DNA of 64,000 bases, taken from an uncultured Clostridia bacterium (GTDB lineage Bacteria > Bacillota > Clostridia > Christensenellales > UBA1242). Positions 36,132 to 37,767 of the stretch are shown piece by piece (the stretch's first letter is position 1; each line of letters opens with the position of its first letter). Below the pieces are notes generated by a model, which saw nothing but the letters and a program-made list of their open reading frames with translations, had not been told where the DNA came from and ran no database searches. The position numbers and the translations under genes are program-made. Location: positions 126,769 to 190,768 of the forward strand of contig CAKVOD010000001.1 in assembly GCA_934778205.1 (NCBI GenBank), in the 5' to 3' direction.

Positions 36132-36245
36132 ATTGGAAAAGTGTATTTTTTGAACCTCAAATTTATTGGAAAAGTGTATTTTTTATGGGTAAAATTTGTA
36201 GGAAAAGTGTAAAAATGGGTTGCTTTTTTTATAGGAAAAGTGTAA
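36132..36245 (+). repeat. Four phased 33-bp repeats containing GGAAAAGTGTA, upstream of the AAA+ ATPase gene
   Basis: GGAAAAGTGTA starts at 36135, 36168, 36201 and 36234, an exact 33-bp period. Confidence 0.9.
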
Positions 36246-36270
36246 AATATCTATAATGGGAGTAAAAATT

Positions 36271-37599
36271 ATGTTACACAGAAAGATAGAGCAAAAGATT
36301 ATTGACCACTTGAGCGCCAATTCAAACAAAATACTTATTATTGACGGCGCTAGACAAATCGGCAAGTCTTATATTATTCGGCATATTGCGACCAATGTTT
36401 TGAACGGCAAATTTACAAACTATATTGAAATCAATTTCGTCGAAGATTCGCTAGGTGACAAACTTTTTGCAGATGTAAAAAACAAGGAAGATTTTTATCT
36501 ACGACTCAGCACCATTGCGGGCGAACGTATGAAAGAAAAAGACAACACTTTGATTTTTATTGACGAAATTCAAGAATATCCTCAGTTTTTGACTTTGCTC
36601 AAATTTTTGAAACAGGACGATAGGTTTACATACATTTGCAGTGGTTCTCTACTTGGCGTCACACTTGCAAAAACGCCGTCGATTCCTATTGGTAGTATTG
36701 AGGTCGCTCATATGTATCCGCTTGACTTTGAGGAGTTTTTGCTTGCAAACAATTTTAATGCCATTGCAATCGACACGTTAAAAACAAAGTTTAAAAATTT
36801 AGAAGCCTTAGATGACTCTACACACAACAGAGTTTTAGACCTATTCAAAAAATATTTGATTGTTGGGGGGCTACCCGATGCGGTCAATAGTTTCATTGAA
36901 AATAAAAACATTTTTGAAGTTCGCAAAATTCAAGCTGACATTTTTGACTACTACGGCGACGATGCTAGCAAGTATGATAAATTGCACAAATTAAAAATTA
37001 AACGCATTTATGATATGATTCCTTCGATTATGGAAAACAAAAAGAAACGCGTTGTTGCCAAAGATATTGAAAACATTGAAGGTAAACGCTATTCAAACTA
37101 TCAAGACGAGTTTGATTATCTCATCAATTCGGGCATTGCTCTTGAAGTCAAAGCAATTTCGACGCCCGTTTTCCCTTTGATTGAGTCCAGCGGAAAAAAT
37201 TTACTGAAACTCTACCTCAATGATGTTGGAATTTTGACAAATGTTCTTTACAAGAACAATATTACTGCAATTCTTAATAACGAAAGGAGCATAAATTTAG
37301 GTTCGGTTTACGAATCAGTTGTTGCCAGCGAACTAAAAGCGCACGGACACAATTTATTTTACTACGACAACAAAAAACTAGGAGAAGTCGACTTTTTGAT
37401 TGACGACTATGAGAGTTTATCCGTCTTACCACTTGAAGTAAAATCTGGCAAAGACTACACTATTCATCCAGCAATAAACAAATTTTTAACAAACAAAGAT
37501 TACAACGTTAAAAAGGGCTATGTTCTTTCAAACGAACGCACAATAACACAAGAAAACAATTTGATTTACTTACCAATTTACTATGTAATGTTTTTATAA
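36271..37599 (+). CDS. AAA+ ATPase of the AAA_14/DUF4143 family
   Basis: Walker A GARQIGKS, Walker B LIFIDEIQ, DUF4143-like C-terminus (..GEVDFLI..). ATG at 36271 with GGGAG 8 nt upstream. Confidence 0.85.
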   Translation: MLHRKIEQKIIDHLSANSNKILIIDGARQIGKSYIIRHIATNVLNGKFTNYIEINFVEDSLGDKLFADVKNKEDFYLRLSTIAGERMKEKDNTLIFIDEIQEYPQFLTLLKFLKQDDRFTYICSGSLLGVTLAKTPSIPIGSIEVAHMYPLDFEEFLLANNFNAIAIDTLKTKFKNLEALDDSTHNRVLDLFKKYLIVGGLPDAVNSFIENKNIFEVRKIQADIFDYYGDDASKYDKLHKLKIKRIYDMIPSIMENKKKRVVAKDIENIEGKRYSNYQDEFDYLINSGIALEVKAISTPVFPLIESSGKNLLKLYLNDVGILTNVLYKNNITAILNNERSINLGSVYESVVASELKAHGHNLFYYDNKKLGEVDFLIDDYESLSVLPLEVKSGKDYTIHPAINKFLTNKDYNVKKGYVLSNERTITQENNLIYLPIYYVMFL

Positions 37600-37681
37600 A
37601 AAAGCAACCGCTTGTAAAGTTATTTCGTTGATAACTTATTTAAGGCGGTTGTTTTTCATAGTTAAAACACACTATGATTTG

Positions 37682-37742
37682 ATTGGAAAAGTGTATTTTT
37701 TATAGGTTAAATTTATAGGAAAAGTGTAAAAATGTGTTGCTT
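37682..37742 (+). repeat. Two more 33-bp repeats; a 61-bp direct repeat of 36165-36225
   Basis: GGAAAAGTGTA starts at 37685 and 37718. The 61-bp match to 36165-36225 has 4 mismatches. Confidence 0.9.
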
Positions 37743-37767
37743 ATATATGGTAGGCAAAAAACGGGCA

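Follow-up and report, generated by a model that had tools for sequence, protein, structure and literature searches.

Phased 33-bp direct repeats accompany AAA_14+DUF4143 ATPase genes across bacterial phyla and probably form an iteron-like array bound by the ATPase itself

Introduction

Phased repeats adjoining the gene that encodes their binding protein are a known arrangement, seen with plasmid Rep proteins, DnaA, archaeal Orc1/Cdc6, and ParR. Origin recognition boxes (ORBs) of the Orc1/Cdc6 systems usually flank an A/T-rich unwinding element in inverted orientation. In the case of the DnaA boxes of the dnaA promoter and of the parC/ParR arrays, the promoter of an AAA+ or DNA-binding protein contains phased repeats to which that protein binds cooperatively, thereby regulating itself. 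Here we describe an array of phased repeats in a 64,000-nt stretch of DNA from an uncultured Clostridia bacterium (GenBank assembly GCA_934778205.1, contig CAKVOD010000001.1, positions 126,769 to 190,768), hereafter the window. Copies of the motif GGAAAAGTGTA precede, at a 33-bp period, a gene encoding an AAA+ ATPase with an AAA_14 and a DUF4143 domain, and we show that such arrays are a feature of this ATPase family.

The array shares properties with several of these systems. As in the iterons of plasmids with an autoregulated Rep protein (pSC101, R6K, and P1), its repeats are direct, keep a constant phase and overlap the promoter of the binder's gene (the binder here being, as we infer, the ATPase), and they vary in copy number and are prone to recombination. 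Plasmid iterons have a period of about 22 bp, compared to 33 bp here, and Rep proteins are winged-helix dimers or monomers rather than AAA+ ATPases, whereas the gene described here is a stand-alone chromosomal one. The likeness to archaeal Orc1/Cdc6 is that Cdc6/Orc1 chains are among the best structural matches of the predicted ATPase and that repeated elements adjoin the gene of the presumed binder. In contrast to those systems, the array has two to six direct repeats at a strict 33 bp, the ATPase carries a PD-(D/E)XK domain in addition, and there is no sign of a role in replication. The DnaA-box and parC/ParR systems differ from the array in motifs, spacing, and protein families, and have known partners and roles.

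The ATPase family has been described from its proteins. DUF4143 is classed as a PD-(D/E)XK nuclease domain (PMC3424549). Few uncharacterised prokaryotic proteins are as numerous as the AAA_14+DUF4143 proteins (COG1373, PDC-S01), for which one survey reports some 29,000 chromosomal copies in bacteria and 10,000 in archaea (PMC12988326). The same survey places PDC-S01 fourth in frequency among "defence" candidates; the system is defined solely by its protein, owes its candidate status to its genomic embedding, and awaits validation (PMC12988326). The window protein matches PDC-S01 end to end, with both Pfam domains, and the 33-bp array is an added component. We found no description of it for the DUF4143/COG1373/PDC-S01 family in the searchable literature, so that it is apparently undescribed. 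What is distinctive is that a strict 33-bp period is combined with an AAA+/PD-(D/E)XK protein, with lineage-private motifs, and with conservation across phyla.

Results

A 33-bp array is a feature of the ATPase family

In the window, GGAAAAGTGTA occurs as exact matches at 36135, 36168, 36201, and 36234, 5' of the ATPase gene, and at 37685 and 37718, 3' of it, always on the + strand (Table 1). These six positions and the 33-bp period, which was also returned by Tandem Repeats Finder (TRF), are precisely those of the original prediction, a first reading of the letters alone. The direct repeat that it had reported (36165–36225 and 37682–37742, 57 of 61 nucleotides identical) was likewise confirmed, and a repeat search extended it to 64 nt at 92% identity. 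When one mismatch is allowed, the motif has eight matches in the window against 1.69 expected, a number reached in none of 100 shuffles; no second array of it was found elsewhere in the window. All repeats are direct, and the repeat search found no inverted repeat or inverted pair within or around the array. The spacers are A/T-rich and poorly conserved, so that orthologous arrays consist of invariant cores separated by diverging spacers. The layout is stable within the species, being the same in all 11 contigs that carry an identical ATPase or an identical neighbouring protein.

The array was sought beyond the window in two samples. The first was selected by motif: scanning metagenome contigs for motif pairs at a 33-bp distance yielded at least 120 loci, which with two IMG/VR loci made a sample of 122, 112 of them assessable since in ten the downstream sequence was too short. 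Among the matches listed, an ATPase homologue or remnant lies 3' of the array in 66 of the 112 assessable loci, always co-oriented and about 13–110 bp past the last repeat. The 66 comprise 50 intact genes, five truncated by the end of a contig, and 11 remnants, with 27–81% identity to the protein of the window. Successive exact motifs are spaced by 33 bp in 169 of 186 pairs (again among the matches listed), and by 32, 34, 52, 65, 66, or 99 bp in the remainder. The conserved part of the unit is an 11- to 13-nt core with a T-rich tail, the spacer showing no conservation.

The second sample was selected by protein. An alignment of 23 diverse ATPases, used to search IMG/VR, retrieved 80 loci (25–69% identity) with 55 distinct upstream regions, in which the period was measured as the best 8-mer autocorrelation lag in the 300 bp upstream. 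This lag was 33 in 34 regions, 32 in three, and 66 in three, amounting to 40 of 55. In control windows from the same loci (n = 1214), the best-lag score was at least 3 in 65 cases, only three of which were at lag 33.

The architecture seen in the window was thus found 5' of ATPase homologues in more than 100 loci, as two to six direct repeats on the strand of the gene and immediately 5' of it. It occurs in Bacillota, Bacteroidota, Actinomycetota, Gammaproteobacteria, and Chlamydiota, and annotated plasmid and chromid records add named species. Four-copy arrays are present in Segatella hominis (AGGAAAAGTGTA), Collinsella aerofaciens (GAAAAGTGTCG), and Agathobacter rectalis (AAAAAATGCGATTTTGTGGTAAA). 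Glaesserella parasuis, Vibrio coralliilyticus, and Acinetobacter towneri have an array 5' of the ATPase, and the period is 32 in Criblamydia sequanensis and 66 in Bacteroides fragilis. These findings show that phased direct repeats at a 33-bp period accompany AAA_14+DUF4143 genes, and they provide a simple signature for annotating these genes and their remnants.

Two other identities for the repeats were considered and rejected. To the suspicion that they belong to a widespread, unrelated intergenic motif, the answer is that the motif is widespread but tied to the ATPase family; in the window and 1.03 Mb from 80 unrelated genome loci, no further window-motif array was found except at the orthologous site of a sister species. 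A clustered regularly interspaced short palindromic repeats (CRISPR) array does not fit a core of 11–13 nt, a period of 33 bp, and at most six units, when the criterion is repeats of at least 23 nt, and no cas genes were found among the Pfam-scanned open reading frames (ORFs) of the window or the genes called around the locus on the same-species contig.

Motifs are replaced while the period is kept

Many lineages have a GAAAAGTG-like core. Others differ entirely yet keep 33 bp, such as CTTGCTTTTTCGTGC, TTATTTCTCGGATTTGAGTA, and the palindromic CATAAATGTGTAACGTCTACACATTTATG, and TTGAAAAGTCAA, GGAAAAGCGGCA, AAAAAGTTGCA, and AAATGCGATTTTGTGG are further lineage motifs at the constant period. ATPase lineages and motif classes broadly go together. 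This extends to single contigs: in the clusters of two or three paralogous DUF4143 ATPases at L141 (5749–9600), L177 (1658–4800), and L182 (11589–14900), loci being referred to by L number, the 33-bp period is common to all while each paralogue has its private motif. One of the arrays in L182 is followed only by a C-terminal remnant of the gene.

The same motif can be found in distant hosts. An identical GGAAAAGTGTA array is present in the Clostridia host of the window and in a member of the Bacteroidota (S. hominis), as well as 5' of ATPases in three further genomic contexts, and the nearest relatives of the protein (77–81% identity) come with source names such as Ca. Enteromonas and Acholeplasmataceae. 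Loci L292–L297 (1991–3806) carry the same array with an ATPase of 78% identity, immediately 3' of genes for an AAA_21 ATPase and a 199-aa protein, a pair typical of defence islands. DNA homology of the window to its four closest homologous loci runs from the array (36125–36168) to the stop codon and no further. Since homology is confined to this stretch, array and ORF are a unit that is inherited and transferred. A motif shared across phyla, together with private motifs for paralogues, is not explained by a host transcription factor; most simply, each ATPase would recognise the array beside its own gene. Furthermore, because the 33-bp period is kept despite motif replacement and all repeats are direct, the pattern points to a spacing imposed by a head-to-tail oligomer, as in initiator–iteron systems. 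A unit of 33 bp measures about 112 Å and about 3.1 helical turns, and the proposal that the repeats lie on one helical face therefore holds only approximately.

An array found in at least five phyla with private motifs gives the first concrete, testable molecular handle on this ATPase family. The predictions that follow from it are that the ATPase binds DNA in a sequence-specific manner, forms oligomers of defined geometry, and regulates its own gene; it also supplies candidate binding sites.

The ATPase is predicted to combine an Orc1/Cdc6-like fold with a nuclease domain

From N to C terminus, Pfam detects AAA_14 (PF13173; residues 19–157; 85.4 bits, cut-off 27; E = 4e-24) and DUF4143 (PF13635; residues 231–393; 72.3 bits, cut-off 28.1; E = 5e-20) in the window protein. 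The PADLOC profile for PDC-S01 (PDLC04792) aligns with residues 1–442 over profile positions 1–433 of 452 (E = 6.1e-175), which makes the protein by sequence a PDC-S01 member and a candidate single-gene phage-defence system. Walker A (G26..G31-K32-S33), Walker B (D98-E99), and PD-(D/E)XK motifs (D374 ... E389-x-K391) are all present, and G26, G31, K32, D98, E99, D374, E389, and K391 are invariant in our alignments A1 (23 sequences) and A3 (63 sequences). As for the start of the gene, the ORF list begins at an upstream in-frame ATG at 36256; the GGGAG Shine–Dalgarno sequence fits the ATG at 36271, which is also the start in the gene calls of public assemblies.

An AlphaFold2 (AF2) model built from 63 homologues (predicted local distance difference test score 86.9, predicted template modelling score 0.87) has as its top Foldseek matches Cdc6/Orc1 chains, including the origin–DNA complex 2qby, followed by STAND NTPases and MuB. 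Profile searches with the ATPase found no solved structure related by sequence, nor a sequence-level relation to Orc1/Cdc6. The secondary structure of the model can be read as an AAA+ core (1–150), a helical lid (153–250), and a PD-(D/E)XK domain (approximately 340–442). Between the last two, a helix-helix-hairpin segment (approximately 263–316) is tentatively a possible winged helix.

The last repeat lies within a putative promoter

A putative sigma-70-type promoter can be read 5' of the gene (Table 1), and the core of the fourth repeat (R4, 36234–36244) fills its spacer and overlaps its -10 element. The same TTGCNT-17-TAAAAT layout, with the last repeat in the spacer, is kept in L310, L289, L292, and L123, and L290 has the variant TTGTGT-17-TAATAT. 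An alternative promoter from a promoter scan (TTTATA-18-TATAAT, 36228–36257) likewise overlaps R4.

We propose that the window repeats are one lineage's form of a family-wide iteron-like array, to which the product of the adjacent ATPase gene binds and so regulates that gene; on comparison of sequences, this is the probable reading. The ATPase would likely bind its own array with one protomer per 33-bp unit, head to tail, using a protein in which an Orc1/Cdc6-like AAA+ fold is predicted to be followed by a possible winged helix and then by the PD-(D/E)XK nuclease domain. Occupancy of R4, between -35 and -10, would exclude RNA polymerase and hence repress the gene. Such autorepression is plausible, at slightly less than an even chance. 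The array may also nucleate an oligomer for a further activity of the protein. Of the three ideas offered originally (insertion of the gene into an older array, att-like ends of a cassette, and phased binding sites that regulate the gene from both sides), the last is the closest, inasmuch as the upstream array is family-wide, has a fixed period, overlaps the promoter, and probably is bound. Regulation from both sides is not general, since 3' repeats are rare in the family (see below).

Several observations weigh against this proposal. Self-recognition by the ATPase is what we infer, and motif and protein do not always diverge together: GGAAAAGTGTA is kept by proteins that are just 27–40% identical, yet TTGAAAAGTCAA is the motif of a protein with 67% identity. 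No significant result came from a search for specificity-determining residues, which compared only five with nine independent groups; its top columns were S275, at the start of a predicted helix (274–286), and V166. About one quarter of the protein-selected upstream regions have no clear 33-bp signal, and 46 of the 122 motif-selected loci (among the matches listed) have orphan arrays, with perfect cores and no detectable ATPase. On the side of the protein, Foldseek template modelling scores to Cdc6/Orc1 are low (0.25–0.38), which is expected for multi-domain chains, and the winged helix is a tentative reading of modelled secondary structure. Finally, the Bacteroidota-type array lies about 40–60 nt 5' of a TTG/TAnnTTTG core promoter. 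With the array off the core promoter, simple occlusion cannot be the universal mode, and the regulatory sign may differ in these loci.

Orphan arrays

Orphan arrays may have perfect cores because their genes were lost only recently or because paralogous ATPases bind them in trans. Some orphan arrays have kept short pieces of an ATPase pseudogene, for example L117, L181, and L193. In a recurrent class (L119, L127, L128, L133, L145, L146, L149, L150, L159, L186, L190, and L202), the orphan GGAAAAGTGTA array lies 107–119 bp 5' of a gene for a 106- to 109-aa XRE/HTH_31 protein, inside a conserved element. The left flank of these arrays (…GACTTTACTTTAAT…GGGGATAAAGTAAAG) also precedes the ATPase-bearing arrays L164, L220, L237, and L238. 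The XRE-linked array may serve a gene other than the ATPase, or may be what a deletion left behind.

A more far-reaching version of our proposal takes array and ATPase–nuclease together as a self-contained module, in which the Orc1/Cdc6-like AAA+ protein forms a head-to-tail polymer on private 33-bp iterons, orphan arrays are working sites in trans, and spread and loss occur via recombination or cleavage at the arrays. This is speculative and rather unlikely. If true, a self-recognising module would be a new kind of selfish or defence element, in which sequence-specific DNA assembly governs a nuclease without a separate sensor.

The gene has probably been lost by deletion between repeats

We compared relatives of the locus, ordered by the identity of the neighbouring flavin adenine dinucleotide (FAD)-dependent protein to that of the window. 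At 97%, L306/L307 have the same layout, with the ATPase frameshifted into ORFs of 240 and 194 aa and two cores mutated. These two of six cores (5287–6614) read GGAAAAGcGTA and aGAAAAGTGTA, compared to six perfect cores where the gene is intact, which hints that gene and array decay together. L309 (89%) has no ATPase and instead a scar consisting of R1, R2, and R3' (primes denoting repeats 3' of the gene), whose left part is the upstream array and whose sequence past the third core matches the downstream flank of L306 exactly. The same R1-R2-R3' scar without ATPase is found in L005, L311, and L312 (80–81%), here with a right flank homologous to the downstream flank of L310. A stretch in L005 that had been taken for a degenerate fourth repeat was dropped, L310 showing it to be conserved 3' flank. 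L310 itself (79%) is an intact orthologue (84.5% nucleotide identity) with R1–R4 upstream and a single repeat, R3', 58 bp past the stop codon. Synteny is broken in L004 and L313 (78%), and L007 (70%) has neither array nor gene.

The intact orthologue in L310 and the frameshifted copy in L306 indicate that the empty sites are secondary deletions. All states would be explained if the common ancestor gained the module once and the gene was later deleted twice, independently, by events joining the upstream array to the 3' repeat; from these alignments, this history appears more parsimonious than repeated insertion at identical nucleotide positions. The gene polymorphism expected between orthologous loci thus exists, probably as deletion and not as insertion; the suggestion that the gene inserted into a pre-existing array is right about empty sites (L309, L005, L311, and L312) but probably not about their origin. 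The downstream repeat is the right-hand deletion breakpoint, and its demonstrable effect is structural. Ordinary recombination at short direct repeats would account for the losses, and the 61-bp identity in the clade of the window looks like a later extension or homogenisation of an old 3' repeat against R2-R3. Recombination-prone arrays explain why DUF4143 ATPase genes are frequently pseudogenes or absent.

Repeats 3' of the gene are not a family feature, an idea that we rejected on two counts. Any exact upstream 9-mer recurs within 300 bp past the stop codon in five of 92 genes, and the 11-mer core, with at most one mismatch, recurs within 250 bp in three of 75, two of these being the window and its orthologue L310.

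The alternative that fares best sees array and ATPase as a small mobile cassette whose att-like ends are the repeats and which excises and integrates via them, either site-specifically or by the protein's own nuclease, with array-only sites as empty or landing sites. We consider such cassette or homing behaviour an unlikely, minority possibility. It draws on the clean presence and absence of the gene at the window locus, where two lineages have breakpoints inside the flanking repeats, on the fact that array plus ORF is the unit common to homologues in unrelated genomes, on the many orphan arrays with intact cores, and on the intact PD-(D/E)XK motif. The att-like ends that were predicted are indeed deletion breakpoints at this locus, but no recombinase was found, and close homologues share only the stretch from array to stop codon, without 3' repeats, which are lacking in 72 of 75 genes. 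No integrase or transposase was found nearby, the neighbours in the window being spo0A, DUF421, and FAD-dependent proteins, and a search of the window found no tRNA able to serve as an attachment site. In addition, the ATPase gene of L310 is as diverged as its flanks (84.5% nucleotide identity, compared to 79% amino acid identity of the neighbouring protein), a pattern consistent with vertical inheritance and losses, and the pseudogene remnants behind many orphan arrays speak for decay rather than empty targets. An integron cassette is similar in having a single promoter-proximal gene, present or absent with breakpoints in flanking repeats. It differs in that there is no integrase here and that the flanking repeat is locus-specific, and the repeat search found no attC-like imperfect palindrome at either end of the module.

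Other binders and other roles for the array

Another regulator, be it a host or a defence-island transcription factor, could bind the array in place of the ATPase. This is distinctly improbable. Identical cores 5' of ATPases with as little as 27–40% identity would be accounted for, and so would orphan arrays 5' of unrelated genes such as the recurrent XRE/HTH_31 gene. However, motif and period are common to Bacillota, Bacteroidota, and other phyla without a second gene that travels with the module, the paralogues of one genome differ in motif, and motif classes broadly track ATPase lineages.

A little less probable still is that the units are tandem promoter or UP-like elements, or RNA elements of the 5' untranslated region, selected for expression level. 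In each Firmicute-type unit, 17 nt do separate a TTGC.. box from a TA+T-rich stretch, a promoter scan counted 15 promoter-like sites against 7.6 in shuffles, and at some loci the last core is 3 nt from the ATG. Nevertheless, the core is conserved across phyla of differing promoter grammar, the Bacteroidota-type array has a separate TTG/TAnnTTTG promoter 3' of it, conservation covers only the 11- to 13-nt core and not the spacers, and the exact 33-bp period persists with an entirely different motif. An RNA element was rejected since the surroundings of array and gene have no Rfam match: none at E ≤ 1 in 35600–37800 and, at the gathering threshold, none in the window except a ribosomal protein L10 leader.

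In plasmid rep and archaeal orc1 loci, iterons adjoin the gene of the presumed binder, and this, along with the predicted fold resembling Cdc6/Orc1 and MuB, is what could be said for an iteron/initiator pair serving replication or partition of an integrated or degenerate replicon. Against this least probable reading stand a single-gene module in ordinary chromosomal contexts without helicase, primase, or partition partners, the repeat search, which found neither a feature like a DNA unwinding element at the window array nor an inverted ORB-type arrangement, the chromosome's own dnaA 18 kb away, and tens of thousands of chromosomal family copies (PMC12988326).

Surroundings of the locus

Table 1. 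Features of the array and ATPase locus, in coordinates of the window
Feature	Position	Strand	Basis
spo0A, left flanking gene, 249 aa called	34925..35674	+	Pfam Response_reg + Spo0A_C
Intrinsic-terminator-like hairpin closing the spo0A-side region; left border of the module	36081..36112	+	terminator scan
Upstream array R1-R4, four 33-bp units, core GGAAAAGTGTA	36132..36249	+	motif search, TRF, repeat search
Putative sigma-70-type promoter: -35 TTGCTT, 17-nt spacer, -10 TAAAAT	36220-36225 (-35), 36243-36248 (-10)	+	read from sequence
Shine-Dalgarno GGGAG, 8 nt 5' of ATG	36258..36262	+	sequence
AAA_14 + DUF4143 ATPase gene, 442 aa	36271..37599	+	Pfam, PADLOC, invariant columns
Terminator-like hairpin GCAACCGCTT ... 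AAGGCGGTTG + TTTTT, 3' of ATPase	37603..37657	+	read from sequence
Downstream partial array R2'-R3', cores at 37685 and 37718, 61-64-bp copy of R2-R3	37679..37742	+	repeat search
FAD-dependent protein gene, right flank, convergent; anchor for orthologous loci	37768..39387	-	Pfam scan

The hairpin at the left border is kept directly 5' of R1 in L005, L306, L309, and L310. The one 3' of the ATPase is conserved in L306 and L310 and was not called by the scan tool because its loop is long. The presence of spo0A identifies the window as part of the chromosome of a spore-forming member of the Clostridia.

Right after spo0A, the window has three direct repeats of about 94 nt (35690–35975; GGACGGCAAAC ... 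ACTTTCTAYAAA), for which we found no Rfam match and no consensus fold. There are two copies in L306, three in L005 (2100–2386) as in the window, and four in L309. Elsewhere in the window, the L10 leader (RF00557, 47.9 bits; 32619–32779, - strand) lies 5' of rplJ/rplL, and a 2519-aa ORF (74–7633, + strand), with only a sub-threshold match to CARDB, probably encodes a giant surface protein. The dnaA gene is at 54987–56342 (+ strand), 18 kb from the array, which places the window close to the chromosomal origin region.

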